This document shows positions 6,498 through 63,752 of a stretch of DNA of 64,000 bases, one piece after another. The translations under genes and the position numbers were made by a program. The first letter of the stretch is position 1. Each line of letters opens with the position of its first letter. The DNA comes from Candidatus Woesebacteria bacterium (GTDB taxonomy: Bacteria; Patescibacteriota; Microgenomatia; UBA8517), in the NCBI GenBank assembly GCA_963716475.1, contig OY970314.1, forward strand, positions 10,479 to 74,478, read 5' to 3'. A model generated the notes under the pieces. The model saw only the letters and a program-made list of their open reading frames with translations. It searched no databases and was not told the DNA's origin.

Positions 6498-7229
6498 ATG
6501 GCAGAAGTTATTATCTATCACCATCTTTACAATAAGAAATTTGGCACGGTAGCTGTGGCTGGGCCTCCGGTCAGAGTCTTTAGTTCGGAAAGACTGACAG
6601 GAAAGGCAGCCTCAACCCTACCCAGGCTTTCAAAATTTACAGCCTTGATTGGAATAGCTTTGATCCTCTTTTTCTATGTTCCGAAGGTCTTGGCTTGGGG
6701 AGGGAACGTTGTTGCCACAACCTTTGAAAATTTCAGAATGTCCAAGGCTGAAGTTCAGACTCTGACAAGTGATCTAAATATATCAAAACCTGTCTATGAC
6801 CCTCCTTTTGACCCGAGGCTTCCGGCCACGAATCACCTCCTTATTCCGTCAATCGGGGTGAATACCGATATTCAGGAGGCTACTGCCGATGACTATGAGG
6901 AAGCACTCCGGAAAGGCGTTTGGAGAGTTTCCGATTTTGGCGCCCCGAATGATAACGGCAGGCCGATAATTCTTGCCGCGCACAGGTTCGGGTACTTGGC
7001 CTGGACCAATTCCTACAGGCATAACAATTCCTTTTACAATCTCCCCAAAGTGAAGGTTGGGGATGTGGTGGAAATAGACTGGAATCAAAAGAAATATTTA
7101 TACGAGGTTTACGCAACCAGTAGCGGGACCCAAATCCTGGATTATTCGGCTGACCTGATCCTATATACATGCGAGACATTGGAGGGAACCGAGAAGGTTT
7201 TTGTTTATGCTCATCTAATGTGGATTTAA
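6498..7229 (+). CDS. Sortase-family transpeptidase
   Basis: N-terminal TM segment 'FTALIGIALILFFYVPKVLAWGG'. Catalytic-His context 'ILAAHRFGY' and a TLxTC-type catalytic-Cys motif 'LILYTCETLEG'. 243 aa. Confidence 0.7.
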   Translation: MAEVIIYHHLYNKKFGTVAVAGPPVRVFSSERLTGKAASTLPRLSKFTALIGIALILFFYVPKVLAWGGNVVATTFENFRMSKAEVQTLTSDLNISKPVYDPPFDPRLPATNHLLIPSIGVNTDIQEATADDYEEALRKGVWRVSDFGAPNDNGRPIILAAHRFGYLAWTNSYRHNNSFYNLPKVKVGDVVEIDWNQKKYLYEVYATSSGTQILDYSADLILYTCETLEGTEKVFVYAHLMWI

Positions 7230-8942: not shown

Positions 8943-11687
8943 ATGAAAAAAAATCTTCTCAAGTTTCTTCTTCCAGCGGTATTGGTAACAATATCGCTTT
9001 TTTTGTGTTTTAAAAATTACACCCCCGGAACTTATCTTCTCGGTTGGGATTCCCTCCACCCCGAATTTAACTTTCCTGAGGCTTTTGCCCGTGTTTGGGA
9101 CGGGGTATGGAGAGCCGAGCAGGGGATAGGAACTCTTGCGGCCCATTCGCATATGGCCGATTTTCCAAGAATCGTTCTTTTGTGGCTGGAATCGGCCGTT
9201 ATATCGGCATCGTTCCTGCGTTATTCTTACATTTTTCTATGTTTAATTTTAGGACCGCTTGGAGTCTACTTTTTCTTGAAGTATGTATTTCGTACCGAAA
9301 AGGAAAGCGTCTGGGCTTATCCTGCCGCCTTTTTGGGAGCACTTTTTTATCTTCTGAATCTTAGTACATTACAGAATTTCTTTGTGCCTTTTGAAATGTT
9401 TGCCGCGGCATTTGCTTTTGTCCCCTGGGTGGCAATTACCGGGCTTAAATATCTAAGGGAGGGAGGCAAACGAAACCTGTTACTTTGGGCGGCAATTTTG
9501 ATTATATCTTCACCGATGGCTTATGCAGCTACCCTTTGGTATGCCAGTTTTGCTGGACTATTCATCTTTCTGGTCGCATCCGCCCTGATACCTTCGGGCA
9601 GGAAATTAAAAATTAAGAGATTATTATTTCTGCTTCTTACTGCGGTACTTCTGAATTCATACTGGATTCTGCCTAATATTTACTCTGTTTCTAATCAGTC
9701 CGGGATAATTTCCAACTCAAACATCAACCGTCTTTTCAGCTCCGAAGCTTTCCTTCGAAACCGCGATTATGGTGACCCTGCCGATATCCTTTTACAAAGA
9801 AGTTTCCTATTCAGTTGGCGCAATTTTGATACTGTCAGCAATCAATTTACCGACCTTATGGGAGTTTGGACGAAGTATTTGTCAAATCCGATTGTTCTTG
9901 GTGTGGGTTATACCCTGGCCGGCATGTCGGTACTTGGCCTTATCGCGGGGATTGTCAAACGCCAGAAAGTAGCTATAGCCATGATTCCTGCGACCCTATT
10001 TGCTCTTTTTTTCCTGATTAATATTAACCCTCCAACAGGAGGTCTATATGCCTACTTCTACAATAATTTTGGCGTTTTCGCAGAAGGATTTCGAATGCCT
10101 TTTTCCAAATTGTCGATTTTATATGAATTTTTGGCTTCATTTTACTTCGGATACTTTGCTTTTGTTTTACTTATCTTCAAAGAAGATCGTTTGAGGAAAG
10201 TAATTCGGTTATTTTTTATTTTTGTAAAAACATTGTTTTTCCTGTCGGTTACCGCTGGAGCGATATATTTCATGCTGCCGGCATTTAACGGATGGCTTAT
10301 TGGCCCAAATGTTAGAAAAGCCTTACCGGCTGAATATAAGGAAGTATTTAATTGGTTTAATTCAAATGCTTACGGCCGTGTCGCACTATTCCCGATTAAT
10401 TCCAAATACGGGTGGGAATATAGAAGTTGGGGGTATGAAGGATCGGGATTTTTAACTTACGGGACCTCAGATCCGATTTTATACCGTGATTTTGACCGCT
10501 GGAATATCGGCAATGAAGACTTTTACAACCAAAGCGCATTCGCACTTTATACAAACAATGCCCTGGCCCTTGTCAATACGGCTAAAAAATATCAGGTAAA
10601 GTATATCCTTTTGGATGAATCGATAATTAATCCGGGAGGAACTCCCGACCTTCTTAAAATTCCGGACCTTAAAAATATTTTTGTGGTAGACGGGTTCAAA
10701 AAGGTTGCAAATTTTGGTTTTTTGACAATCTACGATACAGGTTATGGGCAAGCGGAAGTATCTGCGCCATCTAAATTTATTCAAACGGGGTTTCTCTTAT
10801 CTTATTCGCCAGTTGATCCTGTTTATGAAAAATATGGTGATTATATATACACCAGCGAGGCACTCCCTGTTCGAAAGTCACCCGACCTGCCTCATGTAAT
10901 CCCTGCAGTTTCGGAGAATTTTTCCATAAACCGTGGGTTTCCTGAGGCATATAACTGCGATTTGACAAAGAACGGGACTGTTTTTAAACAGAATTCTCCT
11001 GAGGGAATATTGTACCGTGCGGAAGGCGGAGGAGCGTCCTGTGATTATCTGGGTTATCTGGACCTCAAGTATACCCAGGCGTATGTTCTGAGAGTTGCGG
11101 GGGTAAATAGGCAAGGGCGAAGCATAAAAATGTATTTGTTTAATCAGTATTCCCAGGTGCCGGATATTGAGGAGATTCTGCCTTCCGGTAACTTTGATAA
11201 AACCTATCTTGTTTATCCGAAATATGTAAAAGGAACAGGTTATGTTTTAAATCTTGAGACAAGATCTTTTGGACGGATTGCCTCGGAAAACCTTTTGACA
11301 AAAGTTGAATTTTATCCGGTTGACAATAACTATCTTCAAAACTTTGAGGGAGTCAACTTACAAAATGTAAACAGTGTCCAAAACAATATGAAAATTATGA
11401 GTATCAAAAGTTACGGAAACTGGGCATATAAAGTTATTGCAAGCGGAGACGTTCTTCTCGAGTTGGGGCAAGGGTATGATCCGGGTTGGACGGCAATCCC
11501 GACATCCAAACATGAACTGCAGCATGTAGAGGCTAACGGTTGGGCCAACGGATGGATTGTCCCCTCAAATCAACCATTTGACCAATCAACAATTTACATA
11601 TTCTTCTGGCCCCAGCTTCTGGAGTGGGGAGGAGGAATTTTAGGTATAGCTACACTTTTGGTGTTGATTTTTAAACGCAGGCGATAG
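8943..11687 (+). CDS. Large polytopic membrane protein (914 aa), putative GT-C-type glycosyltransferase
   Basis: About 10+ hydrophobic TM segments in the first ~450 aa and a large C-terminal soluble domain. No motif firmly recognised, so the function call is by architecture only. Confidence 0.55.
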   Translation: MKKNLLKFLLPAVLVTISLFLCFKNYTPGTYLLGWDSLHPEFNFPEAFARVWDGVWRAEQGIGTLAAHSHMADFPRIVLLWLESAVISASFLRYSYIFLCLILGPLGVYFFLKYVFRTEKESVWAYPAAFLGALFYLLNLSTLQNFFVPFEMFAAAFAFVPWVAITGLKYLREGGKRNLLLWAAILIISSPMAYAATLWYASFAGLFIFLVASALIPSGRKLKIKRLLFLLLTAVLLNSYWILPNIYSVSNQSGIISNSNINRLFSSEAFLRNRDYGDPADILLQRSFLFSWRNFDTVSNQFTDLMGVWTKYLSNPIVLGVGYTLAGMSVLGLIAGIVKRQKVAIAMIPATLFALFFLININPPTGGLYAYFYNNFGVFAEGFRMPFSKLSILYEFLASFYFGYFAFVLLIFKEDRLRKVIRLFFIFVKTLFFLSVTAGAIYFMLPAFNGWLIGPNVRKALPAEYKEVFNWFNSNAYGRVALFPINSKYGWEYRSWGYEGSGFLTYGTSDPILYRDFDRWNIGNEDFYNQSAFALYTNNALALVNTAKKYQVKYILLDESIINPGGTPDLLKIPDLKNIFVVDGFKKVANFGFLTIYDTGYGQAEVSAPSKFIQTGFLLSYSPVDPVYEKYGDYIYTSEALPVRKSPDLPHVIPAVSENFSINRGFPEAYNCDLTKNGTVFKQNSPEGILYRAEGGGASCDYLGYLDLKYTQAYVLRVAGVNRQGRSIKMYLFNQYSQVPDIEEILPSGNFDKTYLVYPKYVKGTGYVLNLETRSFGRIASENLLTKVEFYPVDNNYLQNFEGVNLQNVNSVQNNMKIMSIKSYGNWAYKVIASGDVLLELGQGYDPGWTAIPTSKHELQHVEANGWANGWIVPSNQPFDQSTIYIFFWPQLLEWGGGILGIATLLVLIFKRRR

Positions 11688-11781: not shown

Positions 11782-13989
11782 ATGGTGCGAAGGATTGGAA
11801 AAGTACTACAGGCCGTACTTTTTGTTGCGGTAGTTACCTTTTTCGCAACGTCTTCCGGCCGCGTAAAAGCACAGACAGCGTTCCTTTTTGCCTCGATGAG
11901 TGATAGTCATATTGAGACAACCAACTTTACCAATACCGTTAATCAAATAAAATCATTAAATCCGAAGTTTGCCCTTTTTAACGGTGATCTGGAGAACGAC
12001 GGGGTGGTGTCCAGTCAGATGGATCCCATGATAAATGTGCTGAAAAATGCAGGGATATTTAATAATACTTTTTTAGTGCGTGGCAACCATGATGATCATT
12101 TATCGGGTAGCGCTGCTTTATGGCAAAGTTATTTTACAACGGCAAACCGACCGCTTCCTGCCGGCGTCACCAACTACGTCGGCATAGATTCTTCCTCTAC
12201 CTATCTTACCTATTCTTTTGATTATGATAACTCCCGGTTTATCGGATTAGACAGCAATCAGTATGGAGATCCTCCCACAAGCGCACAGTATACATTCCTT
12301 GATCAGCGACTGACAGATGCAGAAAACACTGGTCTCACTCATGCATTTATATTTGTTCACCCCCCCGAATATTGTGTAGAGAGCACCCACTGTGGTTGTC
12401 AAACGGCAACAGGCTGCGGGCCTTCTACACAATTTATATCACTAATCAATAAGCACCCGATTGTTTCGGCAACATTCCATGGCCATGAACATATTTTAGC
12501 CTGGGTCCATATGAGCAGCGCCCGTGTCCCGGGGTTGACTCATGAGTATGAGGAGTTTATTACGAGTTCTTCGGGGAACCCGTATAGTTTTACCCCGTAT
12601 CCTGCCCGCATGGACTATTATAACTATTCAAGTAGCTTAACAGCATTTGGAACGGTTACTGTAAATGGGCCGAATTTTACGGTTAATTTTTATCATACCG
12701 GAACCACCACGCCGATTTGGTCCAACACATTCACCAAATCGGGTTCCGCGACAACAGTTCCTACTGCCACACCGTCTGTGACATCGACCCCTATAAAAAC
12801 ACCGACACCAACACCAATAAAGACTCCGACTCCGGTACCGACACCAACCAAAACAGTAACACCTGTTCCCGCTCCGACGCAAACACCGACCGGCGGCCTT
12901 ACAAGAACGATGAAATATTATGGTGTCGATCGCGGGAGTCCGTTTTCCGATGCCAACTATGCCAACCTGGCTTCTCATTCGGTAAAAACTATCATTGTCG
13001 ATACATATATTAATGACGCGAGTAATAGCACCAGTTCCAAATGGTCAAATGTCAAAGCTCTGGCGGATAAATATAATTTCAATTATGTTATCTGGCCAAA
13101 CCAAGGCGGAGATGTTTCCGGATGCCGCTGGGAATATCCGTTCAATGCACCAGTGAATGGTTATTATATTGGGAGAGTCACGACCATGCTGGATTTCTTC
13201 GCATCAGACCCGCATTTTATCGGCATGGTGAGCTCCCATGAGCCGAGTTCGGCTGTTTCAACGGGCTGTAATTCTACAATTGCCGACATGACCGCCATCA
13301 AATCACAGCTAAAAACGTATATGCAGTCAAAGGGAAGAGCTGACTTTAAGGTCTGGAATTATATTGATAATATTACGAATTTGATGAGTATGTCCGGCTA
13401 CACCCCGGCAGATATTGAGCGGGTTATGGATGTGGCGGTGACTTGGCAGCATTGTTTTGGTACGGCTGAAGGGACATGTCCTGCTGCCAAAAATAAAATA
13501 ATTGCCGACCGCAATTACATTAATCAGGCCGGTTTGGACGGCAAGGTTGATTTGGTCTACTTGTTCCAAACGTTCGGTTATACCAATTATGGCTATACCA
13601 TGCCGACACTTGCAGATATGCAGGCGTGGGATTGTCAGTTTGTTGCCACCAACGCTCTTGACGGCTTCATGTACTACACATGGGGTGCCTGGTATGATAC
13701 GGATTTAGCTAACCACCCTGAGCTTTGGCCGGAAATGGACAGGGTTTATAACAGTTGTGTTAATACAATCTCTGTGGCGCCGACTCCGTCATCATCTCCA
13801 GTAGTGGTTCCGGCAGTTAAGCCGGGGGACGCCAACGGAGATAATAAGGTCGACGAAGCCGATTATGCGGTATGGTTTTCTCATTTTGGTATGACATCCT
13901 CGGGGGTTTCTAACGGGGACTTTAGCGGTGACGGGGTTGTCGATGGCATAGATTATGCTATTTGGATTTCAAATTATAACAGCAATTAA
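11782..13989 (+). CDS. Secreted calcineurin-like metallophosphoesterase with a PT-rich linker and a C-terminal dockerin-like module
   Basis: Signal peptide. Metallophosphatase motifs 'SDSH', 'FNGDLEND', 'VRGNHDD', 'GHEHI'. Linker 'TPIKTPTPTPIKTPTPVPTPTKTVTPVPAPTQTP'. C-terminal paired Ca-binding-like repeats 'GDANGDNKVDEADYAVWFSHFG' and 'GDFSGDGVVDGIDYAIWISNY' (dockerin type I pattern). Confidence 0.7.
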   Translation: MVRRIGKVLQAVLFVAVVTFFATSSGRVKAQTAFLFASMSDSHIETTNFTNTVNQIKSLNPKFALFNGDLENDGVVSSQMDPMINVLKNAGIFNNTFLVRGNHDDHLSGSAALWQSYFTTANRPLPAGVTNYVGIDSSSTYLTYSFDYDNSRFIGLDSNQYGDPPTSAQYTFLDQRLTDAENTGLTHAFIFVHPPEYCVESTHCGCQTATGCGPSTQFISLINKHPIVSATFHGHEHILAWVHMSSARVPGLTHEYEEFITSSSGNPYSFTPYPARMDYYNYSSSLTAFGTVTVNGPNFTVNFYHTGTTTPIWSNTFTKSGSATTVPTATPSVTSTPIKTPTPTPIKTPTPVPTPTKTVTPVPAPTQTPTGGLTRTMKYYGVDRGSPFSDANYANLASHSVKTIIVDTYINDASNSTSSKWSNVKALADKYNFNYVIWPNQGGDVSGCRWEYPFNAPVNGYYIGRVTTMLDFFASDPHFIGMVSSHEPSSAVSTGCNSTIADMTAIKSQLKTYMQSKGRADFKVWNYIDNITNLMSMSGYTPADIERVMDVAVTWQHCFGTAEGTCPAAKNKIIADRNYINQAGLDGKVDLVYLFQTFGYTNYGYTMPTLADMQAWDCQFVATNALDGFMYYTWGAWYDTDLANHPELWPEMDRVYNSCVNTISVAPTPSSSPVVVPAVKPGDANGDNKVDEADYAVWFSHFGMTSSGVSNGDFSGDGVVDGIDYAIWISNYNSN

Positions 13990-14025
13990 AATTGCTGATA
14001 TGTAGTTTTAATTGGATAAAATGTC

Positions 14026-15534
14026 ATGGAAAGTAAATTAAATCTCGGAATAAAAGAAATGTACGATCGGGTGAAAGAGGTAGGTGTCAAAGTGGAGAAT
14101 ACGGCTTTGTCCCAAACAAATAAAATACCGCTATTCTCCAAGTTAAAAATGAAGTTTTTCGGATTTCCTAAAAATTTGAAGACTGGTTTTAAATACCTCA
14201 CGCTTGTGCTACCTCTAATCGCTATTTTTGTTACTCTGGTTCTAATTCGGAATAACCAGACAATAGGAATCCAAGCCGGAACACATCAGGCTGCTCTTTC
14301 TTTTGAGGTAGCCTCATGGAGCATTCCGCCCCAGAGCTCTTTTGGTGTTTGGATAAATTCGGACTCTCCGGTGGCATTTTCTGATATCGAGCTTTCTTTT
14401 GACCCCAGGTTTATCAAAATGATCAGCGAGGTTAATTTGGGCAGTAGTCTGACCAGAAAAATAAAAATTACATCAATGGCTGATGCCAACTCAACGGGTA
14501 AAATGTCGATAGTTTTGGGTCTCGACCCTTCTAATTTAGGGAATCCTCCCTCGGGAGCGTTTCGAGTAGCCGATCTGACATTTGATTCGAATACTTTGAC
14601 ACAAAACGCGGCTACAAAAATCTCCTTCACGACCCCAGGTATGCAGCTTGTCGCACTTGATCAATCGGTTTTTACTCTGACAACTACGGGGGTTGACCTT
14701 ACCATTAACAAACCAAGCCCGACTCCGACACCAAAAATGACTCAAACCCCAACGCCAACTCCCAAGTTGACCCCGGCTCCGACACCAAAAATGACTCAAA
14801 CCCCAACGCCAACTCCCAAGTTGACCCCGGCTCCGACACCAAAAATGACTCAAACCCCCATACCGGTGTTGACACCTTCTCCTAAGCCAATTTCTACATC
14901 CACTCCAAACCCAACTTCTCTAGTTATCACTAATGTTCGGGCCACGGACGTTACGCAGACGGGAGCGACAATCAGTTGGAACCTTTCTGATTATGGAACA
15001 GGACAGGTTCAATATGGGACTACTACGACATATGGCTTGCTTTCTACGCCTGAAACGTCATTTGACTGGAATTATCATATTCAACCACTGAGCAATCTCA
15101 AACCGGGAACACTTTATCACTACCGTGTTTCGTCATCCAATAGAGCCGGCCAGTTGACCGTCAGCGGCGACTACACCTTCACTACCATAGGAATATCGCC
15201 GACTGCTACTCCGGTAAGGACTTTAACACCGGTTCCGTTCCCAACGGCAACTCCCGTACCCGTGGCTAAGGTTCTTCTATCCGGCACGGTAACGAACTCT
15301 GGTAACTACAGGCTTATTAGTGGAATCAGTGTAACTGTCAGGGATAACTCAGGGGTGGTTGTTGCCCGAGGCAGGACAGATAGTCACGGACATTACGGGT
15401 TTTATTTAAACACCGGTTCATACAAAGTTACGGTGTCAGGATTTGGCTATATTAGTAAAACAGCCACGGTTGATCTTTCTGGTAACTTTATACTAAACTT
15501 TGCGATATCGCGCTGGAGAATTTTAAATTTTTGA
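14026..15534 (+). CDS. Membrane-anchored protein with a cohesin-like N-terminal module, PT-rich tandem linker, FN3-like and Cna-B/CarboxypepD_reg-like domains
   Basis: TM 'YLTLVLPLIAIFVTLVLI'. A ~150-aa beta-rich module containing 'IELSFDPRFIKMISEV' (cohesin-like 'YDP..L' signature). 18-aa tandem linker repeats. 'ISWNLSDYGTGQVQYGTTTTYG...YHYRVSS' is FN3-like. 'LSGTVTNSGNYRLISGISVTVRDNSGVVVARGRTDSHGHYGF' is Cna-B-like. Confidence 0.6.
   Translation: MESKLNLGIKEMYDRVKEVGVKVENTALSQTNKIPLFSKLKMKFFGFPKNLKTGFKYLTLVLPLIAIFVTLVLIRNNQTIGIQAGTHQAALSFEVASWSIPPQSSFGVWINSDSPVAFSDIELSFDPRFIKMISEVNLGSSLTRKIKITSMADANSTGKMSIVLGLDPSNLGNPPSGAFRVADLTFDSNTLTQNAATKISFTTPGMQLVALDQSVFTLTTTGVDLTINKPSPTPTPKMTQTPTPTPKLTPAPTPKMTQTPTPTPKLTPAPTPKMTQTPIPVLTPSPKPISTSTPNPTSLVITNVRATDVTQTGATISWNLSDYGTGQVQYGTTTTYGLLSTPETSFDWNYHIQPLSNLKPGTLYHYRVSSSNRAGQLTVSGDYTFTTIGISPTATPVRTLTPVPFPTATPVPVAKVLLSGTVTNSGNYRLISGISVTVRDNSGVVVARGRTDSHGHYGFYLNTGSYKVTVSGFGYISKTATVDLSGNFILNFAISRWRILNF
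14724..14862 (+). repeat. 54-nt tandem repeat (~2.6 copies) encoding the linker 'TPKMTQTPTPTPKLTPAP'
   Basis: Unit 'tccgacaccaaaaatgactcaaaccccaacgccaactcccaagttgaccccggc' recurs at 14724, 14778 and 14832. Confidence 0.8.
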
Positions 15535-49885: not shown

Positions 49886-50431
49886 TTAATTTTTTGATTT
49901 GTTTACCAAATTCTGATTTGGCCAAGTTTTGCTTATTTGTTTCTCAGATTCGAGCCAAAGAAGAAAATGTCTTATATCAGAAAGATAGTTTTTGATAGTG
50001 TTAGGAGAGACTTTCTCCCGCTCAAGCTGCCGCCTATAATCACTAAATATTGGATTAATACTAACTCCCTTGACAGGATTTGAACTGACGTTCTCGATGC
50101 CTTCGGTGAAATCATGATCGATAATGTGGCTTCCAAGTAGGAATCTTGACAGGTGCCTTAGGGTTGAAAGTCTGCGGTTTGTGGTCTTAGCCGGAACAGA
50201 ATTTCCAATCATGAAGTTTCTATATTCCTGAGCGAGCTCGGTGTTTAGAAAGGGGACAGTCTCAGTTAAAGATTCAATGTAGCTTCCCAATGATCTGATC
50301 TTCAATATAGCCCAGGCAAGGAAATGAACCAGATCGCTCCTGTAATTTTTATGGGATCGCGGGGAAAGACCTAGAGAGTTGAGGTAAATAATAAATTCTT
50401 TTCTGATTAAATCTGATTTTTGGTTGGGCAT
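49886..50431 (-). CDS. Tandem integrase-type SAM-like (core-binding) domain protein without catalytic domain (181 aa)
   Basis: First ~105 aa form a full Phage_integrase-N/XerD-N-like fold ('FIIYLNSLGLSPRSHKNYRSDLVHFLAWAI....TTNRRLSTLRHLSRFLL'). A second half-domain follows ('YRRQLEREKVSPNTIKNYLSDIRHFLLWLE'). No Tyr-recombinase catalytic region is present. The stop lies 2 codons in-frame before the giant ORF's ATG. Confidence 0.6.
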   Translation of the reverse strand: MPNQKSDLIRKEFIIYLNSLGLSPRSHKNYRSDLVHFLAWAILKIRSLGSYIESLTETVPFLNTELAQEYRNFMIGNSVPAKTTNRRLSTLRHLSRFLLGSHIIDHDFTEGIENVSSNPVKGVSINPIFSDYRRQLEREKVSPNTIKNYLSDIRHFLLWLESEKQISKTWPNQNLVNKSKN

Positions 50432-61770: not shown

Positions 61771-62877
61771 ATGATCGACAAACCCCCAGTTCCGAAATAT
61801 TTTAATGGGGTTTTGTTTAGAAATCTGGCATTATTGATTTTTATAATTTTGTTAATATGTTTTCGTTATTTTACTACCCGCCCGGTTTACAAAAACGGCG
61901 ACACCGTCCGGATTACCGCAACCGTTTTTTCTGACCCGATAAGTTATCCCGGTTCCCGGGGATTAAAAGTTGCGGGAATGACCGTTTATCTGCCGCTTTT
62001 TCCCGAAATAAGTTATGGGGATAGAGTAGTAATCGAAGGAGTTGTGGAAGACGGAAAATTAAAAAATCCAAAACTGATAAGCGTTGCCGAAAGTCAGGGT
62101 TTCGGGTCGGCTATAAGAAATAAAATAATTGCCTTTTATCAGCAGGTTTTACCCCAACCAATGTCGGGACTTATCGCCGGGGTGACTTTGGGAAGCAAAG
62201 GGACCTTAACTGCTGATTTTTGGAATCAGGTAAAACATACCGGAGTGGCTCATGTGGTTGTGGCGTCGGGGACTAATGTGACTTTTGTAGTTTCTTTCCT
62301 AATGGGAATAATAACTTTTTTCCTGCCGCGAAAGAAAGCGGTGGTTTTTGTTATATTGGGTATTATTTTGTATCTGTTTTTGTCTGGGTTTGAGGCCCCA
62401 CTCATTAGGGCTGCGGTTATGGCTACTTTTGCCTTTTGGGCGGTAGAGGCAGGCCGGCTTATTAATGCCTGGCGGATATTATTTCTGACTGCGGGAATGA
62501 TGCTTATCGTCCAACCCGATTGGTTGGGGGATGTGGGCTTTGCGCTATCATTCGTTTCTACAGCCTCTATTATGCTTTTTGAAAAACGGATCTCAAAGTG
62601 GCTGAAGTTCATTCCTGAGGTTTTGAAAGAGGGCTTATCAACCTCGTTTGCAGCTCAAATTGGTGTAGCTCCGATACTGTTTGTTACATTTGGACAGTTT
62701 AATATATGGTCTCCGCTTATAAATGCTTTAGTTCTTTGGACAATTCCATATATTATGATTTTAGGAAGCATTGGGGGAGCACTAGGACTCATATTCCCAT
62801 TTTTAGGCAAAATGATTCTTTGGCTTTCCTATCCGCTAAATTGGTGGTTTGTAGCAATAGTACAGATATTCGGATGA
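61771..62877 (+). CDS. comEC: ComEC/Rec2 DNA-uptake channel, N-terminal part (OB/DUF4131 plus Competence domain)
   Basis: Periplasmic OB-like 'GDTVRITATVFSDP', then the polytopic competence domain with 'HTGVAHVVVASGTNVTFVVSFLMG' (the conserved ComEC 'H..A.SG.' segment). Confidence 0.75.
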   Translation: MIDKPPVPKYFNGVLFRNLALLIFIILLICFRYFTTRPVYKNGDTVRITATVFSDPISYPGSRGLKVAGMTVYLPLFPEISYGDRVVIEGVVEDGKLKNPKLISVAESQGFGSAIRNKIIAFYQQVLPQPMSGLIAGVTLGSKGTLTADFWNQVKHTGVAHVVVASGTNVTFVVSFLMGIITFFLPRKKAVVFVILGIILYLFLSGFEAPLIRAAVMATFAFWAVEAGRLINAWRILFLTAGMMLIVQPDWLGDVGFALSFVSTASIMLFEKRISKWLKFIPEVLKEGLSTSFAAQIGVAPILFVTFGQFNIWSPLINALVLWTIPYIMILGSIGGALGLIFPFLGKMILWLSYPLNWWFVAIVQIFG

Positions 62878-63752
62878 AACTTTGGAAATATATCTTCGGC
62901 GTTTTGTTATTGACTGTTTTTTTGATAGTGATCGCCATATTTCAAATTCCTGACGATAATCTTCATATCGTCGCCTGTAATGTAGGACTTGGGGATGCCA
63001 TTTTGATCACTTACGGAAAAACACAGATTTTAACGGATGGGGGACCGGACAAAAGTGTTTTAGGTTGTCTTGGAAAGTATATGCCCTTTTGGGATAGGGA
63101 CATAGAACTCGTCGTTTCTACACATCCGGACGCGGACCATTCAACGGGACTGGTCGATGTTATTAAGAATTACAAAGTTGACGAAATAATGATTAATCCG
63201 ATAGATCCTGGCACTTCTGTCTATGAAGTGCTAAAAAAAGAGGTGGGGGGTCGGGGTGTACCCGTGATAAATCCGGTAGAAGGCACAAGACTTAGCGTGG
63301 GTCTGATATATTTAGATATACTTGAGCCCTCGGAAGAATTATATAGCAGGTTAATGGTCAAAGACGTTAGCAGTAAACTGGCAAAGTATGATATTAAAAG
63401 CGAGACAAATCTATATTCAATAGTGTATAAACTTAGCTTCAAAAACTTTTCCGGATTATTCACCGGAGATATCCCCCCCGAAATATCAGACGGCCTATCG
63501 GCTCTGAGCGAAGTCGAAGGGTTGGACTATATCAAAATACCTCACCATGGAAGTGTCAACGGTTTAACCGAAAATCTCCTCAAGGCACTTATGCCTAAAA
63601 TTGCGGTAATCAGTGTCGGTAAAAATATCTGGAGTTTTCCCCGTCCCGAAATTTTAGACATGTTGGCAAAGTATGGAGTTAAAATTTTACGGACGGATAA
63701 GGTGGGGGATGTCCAAGTAATAACCGACGGAACAAAGTATTGGATAAAGTAA
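62874..63752 (+). CDS. comEC: ComEC C-terminal metallo-beta-lactamase-fold domain encoded as a separate TM-anchored protein
   Basis: Starts in an ATGA overlap with the upstream stop. TM 'IFGVLLLTVFLIVIAIF'. MBL motif 'STHPDADHSTG' and 'IPHHGS'. Confidence 0.7.
   Translation: MKLWKYIFGVLLLTVFLIVIAIFQIPDDNLHIVACNVGLGDAILITYGKTQILTDGGPDKSVLGCLGKYMPFWDRDIELVVSTHPDADHSTGLVDVIKNYKVDEIMINPIDPGTSVYEVLKKEVGGRGVPVINPVEGTRLSVGLIYLDILEPSEELYSRLMVKDVSSKLAKYDIKSETNLYSIVYKLSFKNFSGLFTGDIPPEISDGLSALSEVEGLDYIKIPHHGSVNGLTENLLKALMPKIAVISVGKNIWSFPRPEILDMLAKYGVKILRTDKVGDVQVITDGTKYWIK

Follow-up and report, generated by a model that had tools for sequence, protein, structure and literature searches.

The pairing of cohesin and dockerin modules, its occurrence outside cellulosomes and the existence of anchors with a single cohesin are all established, and it is with these precedents that we compare here a locus in a 64-kb stretch of bacterial DNA (contig OY970314.1; the whole stretch of 64,000 nucleotides is hereafter called the window). 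The locus consists of two open reading frames (ORFs): ORF A, a predicted secreted phosphoesterase that ends in a dockerin, and ORF B, a protein with a hydrophobic N-terminal helix beside a divergent cohesin. We consider it quite likely that this two-gene operon encodes a surface-tethering pair, composed of a dockerin-bearing enzyme and a membrane cohesin anchor.

The clostridial type I complexes (CaCohA2-Doc0917 of C. acetobutylicum, PDB 6kgc-6kgf; C. thermocellum, 1ohz) share the cohesin fold predicted for ORF B, and in them too the dockerin consists of two EF-hand-like repeats placed C-terminally on a secreted enzyme. Unlike these complexes, the ORF A dockerin has helices with a DY.(I/V)W signature, and the ORF B cohesin is missed by Pfam. 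Clostridial cellulosomes differ further from the window pair, which has a phosphoesterase as cargo, a single cohesin in ORF B (some of its relatives have 2-3) and, as judged with Pfam, neither a carbohydrate-binding module (CBM), in ORF B or elsewhere in the pair, nor a plant-cell-wall glycoside hydrolase (GH); it is thus not a cellulosome in the strict sense. The surface proteins OlpA and OlpC of C. thermocellum attach to the wall through C-terminal SLH domains. In the same way as proposed for ORF B, they tether single enzymes with type I dockerins directly through one cohesin (3ul4, 4dh2), whereas the sole candidate anchor of ORF B is the N-terminal membrane helix beside its cohesin.

A survey made by Peer et al. 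in 2009 reportedly found cohesin- and dockerin-like modules outside cellulolytic organisms. In the passage of PMC13487519 that cites this survey, the parent proteins are described as 'predominantly non-catalytic'; the window pair differs from such modules in having an enzyme as cargo and in belonging to a group of directional operons. PMC13487519 itself reported in 2026 the ClcC-ClcD system of Cellulosilyticum lentocellum, a two-gene 'minimal cellulosome' operon whose complex was validated experimentally. Like the window pair, it combines a single-cohesin protein, with a divergent cohesin, and a dockerin enzyme; it differs in that a CBM3 on ClcC targets cellulose, the cargo is a GH5 cellulase and the organism is a Firmicute. 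The window pair has instead a predicted membrane anchor, a phosphoesterase cargo and a probable host from the Candidate Phyla Radiation (CPR), and its arrangement recurs across many related loci.

For CPR bacteria, Kantor et al. [quoted passage not shown] These remarks are one-line annotations that contain nothing on a cohesin family, on the architecture of anchors, on an operon rule, on subtypes of dockerin or on a phosphoesterase as cargo. In a genetic study of a Saccharibacterium, a dockerin-domain envelope protein was found to be essential, and cohesin is never mentioned (PMC10633639). The preliminary description of the window had placed the pair outside the usual clostridial or archaeal context; pairs of this kind, and cellulosome-like clusters in CPR genomes, had been noted before. 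What appears to be distinct here is a cohesin clade of which Pfam misses the ORF B module and most relatives, an N-terminal membrane helix beside the cohesin, a directional rule by which the cargo gene precedes the anchor gene, two apparently orthogonal dockerin subtypes and a phosphoesterase cargo. Our literature search found no paper describing these features, and none combining 'dockerin' and 'metallophosphoesterase'.

The features of the two genes are the following (window positions; aa, amino acids).

11782..13989, + strand: ORF A, 735 aa, predicted secreted multidomain phosphoesterase with C-terminal dockerin, the cargo (ORF listing, Pfam)
11782..11871, + strand: predicted Sec signal peptide, aa 1-30 (basic n-region, hydrophobic core and VKA-QT junction, read by eye from the sequence)
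11872..12744, + strand: calcineurin-like metallophosphoesterase domain, aa 31-321 (PF00149, motifs)
12745..12891, + strand: Pro/Thr-rich linker of ORF A, aa 322-370 (sequence)
12892..13767, + strand: orphan domain of ORF A, ~290 aa, aa 371-662 (family of 29 homologues)
13819..13980, + strand: dockerin of ORF A, aa 680-733 (Pfam Dockerin_1; Ca-binding loops 13828-13863 and 13918-13953)
13990..14025, + strand: intergenic spacer, 36 bp (no + strand terminator-like site)
14026..15534, + strand: ORF B, 502 aa, single-cohesin protein, putative anchor (ORF listing, domain matches)
14191..14250, + strand: N-terminal hydrophobic helix, aa 56-75, probable signal-anchor (Kyte-Doolittle mean 2.38)
14269..14715, + strand: divergent type-I-like cohesin module, aa 82-230 (structural model, Foldseek, relatives)
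14716..14925, + strand: Pro/Thr (PT)-rich linker of ORF B (54-bp tandem repeat at 14718-14858)
14926..15186, + strand: FN3 domain of ORF B, aa 301-387 (Pfam)
15277..15486, + strand: CarboxypepD_reg (transthyretin-like) domain, aa 418-487 (PF13620, E 4.8e-11)

Both ORFs lie on the + strand where the preliminary description had them, and the three peptides that it quoted are present in the ORF listing. It had also called a ~150-aa beta module of ORF B cohesin-like, and structure prediction bears this out. A model of the module calculated with AlphaFold2 (AF2) from an alignment of 76 sequences has a predicted local distance difference test score (pLDDT) of 95.5 and a predicted template modeling score (pTM) of 0.88; a two-sequence alignment gave a pLDDT of 48.7, and the model used throughout is the one that rests on 76 sequences. 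When this model was compared with the PDB by means of Foldseek, the top 50 matches were all cohesins (50/50), with type I leading. The best match, 6kgf_C (E 1.1e-10, template modeling (TM) score 0.76/0.78), is aligned over ~150 columns, and the matches include OlpA and OlpC (3ul4, 4dh2) as well as the non-cellulosomal cohesin 2xdh of Archaeoglobus fulgidus. The predicted fold is, as in cohesins, a beta-sandwich jelly roll of about 140-150 residues. The TM score with known cohesins is 0.74-0.78 over the full-length alignment, at a sequence identity of just 10-18%.

At the level of sequence, the family of relatives of the module carries the cohesin signal. Nineteen of 76 members individually match the Pfam cohesin profile PF00963 (best E 1.3e-6), while other Pfam families match at most 2 members each, and P0003, a relative 63% identical to the ORF B module, passes the PF00963 threshold with 35.1 bits versus a gathering cutoff (GA) of 24.1. 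A comparison by hhalign with the cohesin from the related locus L024 gives E 2e-4. In searches of the PDB sequences, a two-sequence profile of the module had no match; the top match of the family profile was a cohesin, 6kgc, aligned end to end but with E 0.14. Because the fold match from AF2 and Foldseek and the PF00963 hits among the relatives agree, we take the module, on the model and the alignments, to be a divergent cohesin.

The C-terminal repeats of ORF A had been assigned to the dockerin type I pattern, and Pfam concurs: Dockerin_1 (PF00404) matches aa 681-727 with 29.8 bits versus a curated GA of 22.9. The region has the two tandem segments of ~22 residues, each a loop of the EF-hand type with a helix after it, that are typical of such dockerins. 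The Ca-binding loops, DANGDNKVDEAD (aa 683-694) and DFSGDGVVDGID (aa 713-724), both have D, N or S at EF-hand positions 1, 3, 5, 9 and 12, i.e. the complete set of ligands. The DY.(I/V)W signature of the helices identifies the subtype that we call 'cargo-type'. Against the PDB sequences, this region shows weak matches to chains containing dockerin; a search of the 64-kb window with a regular expression and a hidden Markov model (HMM) found no second dockerin. A predicted cohesin fold at residues ~80-230 of ORF B and a dockerin profile match were the two results that the preliminary description had singled out as decisive, and both were obtained.

The catalytic assignment of ORF A to the metallophosphoesterases likewise holds. 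Metallophos (PF00149) matches aa 37-238 (E 6e-10, 40.3 bits versus GA 21.5), and the five motifs of these enzymes are all present: DSH (DxH) at 41-43, GD at 68-69, GNHD at 101-104, H193, and GHEH (GHxH) at 234-237. Since all five are intact, the enzyme is probably active. The domain has 175 homologues, one of which is labeled Candidatus Microgenomates; the nearest are Metallophos-dockerin proteins of ~380 aa. The orphan domain that follows in ORF A has 29 homologues, all annotated as 'hypothetical', with a dockerin after the domain in several of them; its invariant residues include His-Glu (486-487), Gln-Thr-Phe and several Cys. The nearest relatives of the orphan domain are orphan-domain-dockerin proteins of ~390 aa, and since the closest relatives of the two parts are thus separate dockerin proteins, two cargo modules that are found elsewhere on their own seem to have been fused in ORF A. 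With the family profile of the orphan domain nothing significant was found in the PDB sequences or in Pfam. An assignment as glycoside hydrolase, prompted by a 'HEP' motif, found no support: the best PDB match was a GH5 with E 0.44 and GH72 was touched by one family member only. A role of ORF A in phosphate scavenging or as a nuclease is plausible, and modest support for the former comes from a related locus in which a gene for a phytase-like dockerin protein adjoins a phosphoesterase-dockerin gene (L026), together with the phytase-like insert of another related phosphoesterase (L028, see below).

Whether the two genes belong together can be judged from their spacing and from the related loci. 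Co-transcription of ORF A and ORF B is probable, because the gap between them measures only 36 bp and contains nothing that resembles a + strand terminator. In the related metagenome loci, ORFs were called, cohesins and dockerins were tagged with HMMs built for this study, and non-redundant loci were counted. A dockerin gene is the immediate same-strand upstream neighbor of the cohesin gene in 13 of 22 cases, and lies immediately downstream in 2 of 20 (Fisher p = 0.0012); the gaps from dockerin gene to cohesin gene range from -8 to +59 bp. One locus (L001, 1610-9231) has three dockerin-cohesin pairs in succession on one strand, and in two others (L014 and L015) four dockerin genes are followed by one cohesin gene. 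In the locus closest to the window (L004), whose cohesin is 69% identical to that of ORF B, the upstream protein shares with ORF A only the dockerin (67% identical), the rest of the cargo being a polysaccharide lyase. In general, the cargo bodies of the related loci are mutually unrelated (beta-helix/pectate-lyase-like, PF14099 polysaccharide lyase, CBM96, CBM4_9, NHL or PQQ propellers), with polysaccharide lyases, beta-helix proteins and CBMs forming the majority. The window pair appears in this comparison as one instance of a cargo-then-anchor gene arrangement that is seen in most of the related loci. In the third 'dockerin' ORF of L001 (7762-8427, 222 aa) the dockerin is at the extreme N-terminus; the start of this ORF may have been mis-called, or the ORF may be a fragment or encode an unusual N-terminal dockerin.

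Two dockerin subtypes can be recognized. The cargo-type dockerin (GDANGD..VD..DY.IWL.HY...GDFN..G.VDG.DY.IWLNNYG) is found on the proteins encoded upstream of this cohesin family, and the conventional-type dockerin (GDINGDG.VNILD...) on the cohesin proteins themselves. In L024, a locus reached from the cargo side, conventional-type dockerins adjoin transmembrane (TM) cohesins of another clade, one of which is recognized by Pfam and neither of which is matched by the family HMM. In these loci the subtype of the dockerin tracks the clade of the adjacent cohesin. Directional adjacency, exchange of cargo and the match between subtype and clade are comparative evidence that strongly supports the view that these are cognate cohesin-dockerin pairs, of which this is the expected pattern.

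Many of the membrane-anchored cohesins have a C-terminal conventional dockerin of their own (L004 3526-4698, L013/L014/L015, L020-L023, P0003, P0009, P0010, P0013). As these dockerins differ from the cargo dockerins encoded upstream, they suggest a hierarchical or networked assembly. The Pfam-recognized cohesin of L024 (8438-9292) has an N-terminal helix and, toward the C-terminus, a 'PVTGSS...' motif followed by a hydrophobic tail; this may mean that the protein has an anchor at each end, or that a sortase-like enzyme processes it.

The cohesin family to which ORF B belongs was found by exhaustive search with HMMER (a word-indexed search with the module gave one relative) and consists of 519 representative clusters at E <= 1e-3, 366 of which are also found at E <= 1e-10. 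The sole reference-genome relative that the scan returned with a closer alignment is a Candidatus Woesebacteria metagenome-assembled genome. An N-terminal hydrophobic helix is present in 125 of the 150 best representatives, and its end precedes the cohesin by a median of 7 aa; K/R residues are more numerous on the N-terminal side of the helix (3.7) than on the C-terminal side (2.2), and the helix itself is conserved in sequence (KYLLLAIPIIA.F). About a dozen members have two or three tandem cohesins, about 30 have a complete C-terminal dockerin as well, and many consist of only an N-tail, the helix, the cohesin and a short PT tail (e.g. P0001, 261 aa). Read from their domains, these architectures are of anchoring, scaffoldin-like and adaptor-like types, in which an N-terminal membrane helix is predicted to replace the SLH and sortase anchors.

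ORF B conforms to this plan. Its helix, the only TM-like segment in the protein, comes after a K/R-rich tail of 55 aa, and there is no SLH domain by Pfam and no C-terminal LPXTG motif by reading of the sequence. A type IV prepilin-like leader was considered and rejected on reading the sequence, since ORF B shows no Gly-Phe/Met motif for cleavage followed by Glu at +5, and the Gly is missing from P0001 as well. The TM segment, PT linkers and FN3 domain of the preliminary description were all located (helix at aa 56-75, linker at 14716-14925, FN3 at aa 301-387), and its 'Cna-B-like' label was approximately right: the domain at aa 418-487 is assigned by Pfam to CarboxypepD_reg, which we take to belong with Cna_B in the transthyretin-like fold group. 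The same domain is present in the nearest anchors (L004, L007, P0004, P0017). The sequence coding for the PT linker is a tandem repeat with a unit of 54 bp, present in 2.6 copies with 98% matches, and such a near-perfect repeat suggests that the length of the linker has recently expanded or contracted.

The FN3 domain of the anchor occurs together with one type of cargo. Its best Pfam match is Pur_ac_phosph_N (PF16656, 32.1 bits versus GA 30), with fn3 at 25.7 versus GA 25, and this PAP-N-like FN3 occurs in just 3 of 151 family proteins (ORF B, P0017 and P0007). All three are encoded directly downstream of a Metallophos gene, whereas neither the FN3 nor a partner phosphoesterase is found for any of the 8 other anchors with characterized cargo (0/8; p = 0.006). 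In one of these cassettes (L028, 1618-6031) the upstream protein, of 998 aa, comprises a Metallophos domain, the orphan domain, a phytase-like propeller inserted between these two, and a cargo-type dockerin; identities to ORF A are 46% for Metallophos and 49% for the orphan domain, and the anchor, which begins 10 bp after the phosphoesterase gene, has the same architecture as ORF B. In the other (L029, 1-2004) a gap of 24 bp separates the phosphoesterase gene from the downstream gene for an equivalent cohesin-FN3 anchor. As these three cassettes are in all probability orthologs, they represent a conserved unit and not three independent events. We can only speculate that the anchor provides in trans a domain, the FN3, that is present in cis in purple acid phosphatases; the latter have both domains in one chain, and here Metallophos belongs to ORF A and FN3 to ORF B.

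Several of our observations weigh against a tethering pair. The HMM searches recommended in the preliminary description gave the anticipated result for Dockerin_1, which is above threshold, but not for the ORF B module, as PF00963 matches neither ORF B nor the isolated module even at E <= 1, though the P0003 relative does pass. An upstream dockerin gene is missing for 9 of the 22 related cohesin genes, and the flanks of the close phosphoesterase-dockerin relatives in L026 and L027 contain no cohesin gene of the family. The L029 phosphoesterase (1-717, 37% identical) stops directly behind its catalytic part, and none of the frames encodes a dockerin; as its gene nevertheless adjoins that of the anchor, the association is not always mediated by a dockerin. 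Finally, a [S/T]-x-A motif is conserved ~10 residues past the family helix, and could be a signal-peptidase site, in which case the anchor might be released.

It is on this last motif that the alternative with the best prospects is built, i.e. that the two proteins bind each other but are not tethered to the membrane, the helix of ORF B being a long, cleaved signal peptide and the cohesin protein a soluble or wall-associated adaptor that targets its enzyme by means of FN3 and CarboxypepD_reg. The motif is found across the family, and glycans of the wall or of a host are possible ligands of the C-terminal Ig-like and transthyretin-like domains (CarboxypepD_reg, Big_7). We nevertheless regard this as unlikely: minimal members such as P0001 (261 aa) would be left with no anchoring or targeting function, the conservation of the helix extends to its sequence, beyond mere hydrophobicity, and the N-tails that precede it are up to 68 aa long, which is atypical of cleaved signal peptides.

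Alternatively, both modules could be real but not cognate to each other, such that the dockerin of ORF A binds a cohesin encoded elsewhere, or none, and the adjacency reflects only the co-regulation of envelope proteins. Enzymes of cellulosomes are generally encoded apart from their scaffoldins, and the phosphoesterase-dockerin proteins of L026 and L027 are examples in the same enzyme family of dockerins with no neighboring cohesin gene. On the other hand, the asymmetry between upstream and downstream dockerin genes (13/22 versus 2/20) is strong and operon-like, the genes overlap or nearly abut, and the dockerin subtype and the cohesin clade stay matched while the cargo bodies change, so that we find this explanation quite unlikely.

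A third possibility is that the contact that matters functionally is between the catalytic domain and the PAP-N-like FN3 of the anchor, i.e. that the pair is a purple acid phosphatase split over two chains, with cohesin and dockerin in an auxiliary role. The restriction of FN3 to 3 of 151 anchors, each directly after a Metallophos gene, versus 0/8 of the others (p = 0.006), and the persistence of the adjacency in L029, where the dockerin is missing, are in its favor. The three cassettes, however, probably amount to one evolutionary event, the FN3 also matches the generic fn3 profile, and a long flexible linker sets it apart from the cohesin; our estimate is that such a split enzyme is very improbable. 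That dockerin and cohesin act separately, as adhesins or glycan binders directed at a host cell or substrate, has precedents in the suggestion in the literature that non-cellulosomal dockerins are adhesins and in the proposal that the essential dockerin-domain envelope protein of a Saccharibacterium targets host glycans, but we give it hardly any credence, because it leaves unexplained the directional pairing, the match of subtype and clade, and the proteins that join 2-3 cohesins with a dockerin.

In the tethering interpretation that we favor, ORF A would be exported via its Sec signal peptide as an apparently active binuclear metallophosphoesterase followed by the orphan domain and the dockerin, and ORF B would be inserted in the cytoplasmic membrane by its N-terminal signal-anchor helix. 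The cohesin would then be displayed ~7 residues outside the membrane, with the PT linkers, the FN3 and the transthyretin-like domain projecting outward. Ca2+-dependent binding of the dockerin to this cohesin would keep the enzyme on the surface of a Gram-positive-type bacterium with a small genome, probably a member of the CPR/Microgenomates group, with the likely benefit that the products of phosphoester hydrolysis would be freed beside the cell's own transporters.

CPR bacteria combine tiny genomes with a reliance on other cells or on nutrients that they scavenge, and their surfaces are poorly understood. If true, the cargo-then-anchor rule would explain how scarce exoenzymes are kept at the surface in the absence of an outer membrane. 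It would also allow the annotation of hundreds of 'hypothetical' cohesin proteins, as Pfam is blind to most of these relatives, and a phosphoesterase cargo would widen the use of cohesin-dockerin display from the breakdown of polysaccharides to the scavenging of phosphate or nucleotides. Protein engineering could likewise draw on them for new cohesin-dockerin pairs, which are possibly orthogonal. Candidate partners are suggested also for the dockerin-domain proteins of Patescibacteria, one of which is reported to be essential (PMC10633639). A broader generalization, which we advance tentatively and consider doubtful as a whole, is that CPR/Microgenomates-type bacteria use a modular, operon-encoded display system based on a largely unannotated membrane cohesin clade of >500 clusters. 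In such a system there would be two orthogonal dockerin specificities, the cargo-type loading enzymes on the adjacent anchor and the conventional type linking anchors into networks; the phosphoesterase cassette would have its FN3 provided in trans, and the hidden cohesins could be the missing partners of the dockerin-domain envelope proteins that are reported to be essential in cultivated Patescibacteria.

The window is chromosomal. It opens with a complete 23S rRNA (16-2948) and a 5S rRNA, and encodes also S1, RadA, a sortase, Rho, a LysM-M23 peptidase, LeuRS, ComEA/ComEC and many ORFs with no Pfam domain; this gene content fits a small-genome, Gram-positive-type CPR bacterium, which is the probable host. 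One of the related loci is on a contig of 765 kb. The sortase gene (6498-7229) lies ~4.5 kb upstream of the pair, to which it is probably unrelated, because ORF A and ORF B have no LPXTG-type signal. On the same strand as ORF A and 95 bp upstream of it, positions 8943-11687 encode a protein of 914 aa with a large C-terminal region, which on reading of the sequence appears to be a polytopic membrane protein; it has no Pfam match, and no large membrane protein was called at the corresponding position of L028.

Four huge consecutive ORFs on the - strand (23741-49882; 1799, 1005, 2648 and 3026 aa) occupy ~40% of the window. Apart from weak MG2 matches they have no Pfam domains, and their identification as scaffoldins was rejected, as there were no cohesin or dockerin HMM matches and no Pfam domains to support it. 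Just upstream of them, on the same strand, is an N-terminal fragment of an integrase (49886-50431, 181 aa). ComEC is apparently split into ORFs in different frames that overlap by 172 bp, with Competence at 61771-62877 and Lactamase_B at 62706-63752; a frameshift or a pseudogene could account for this, or the gene may be truly split.

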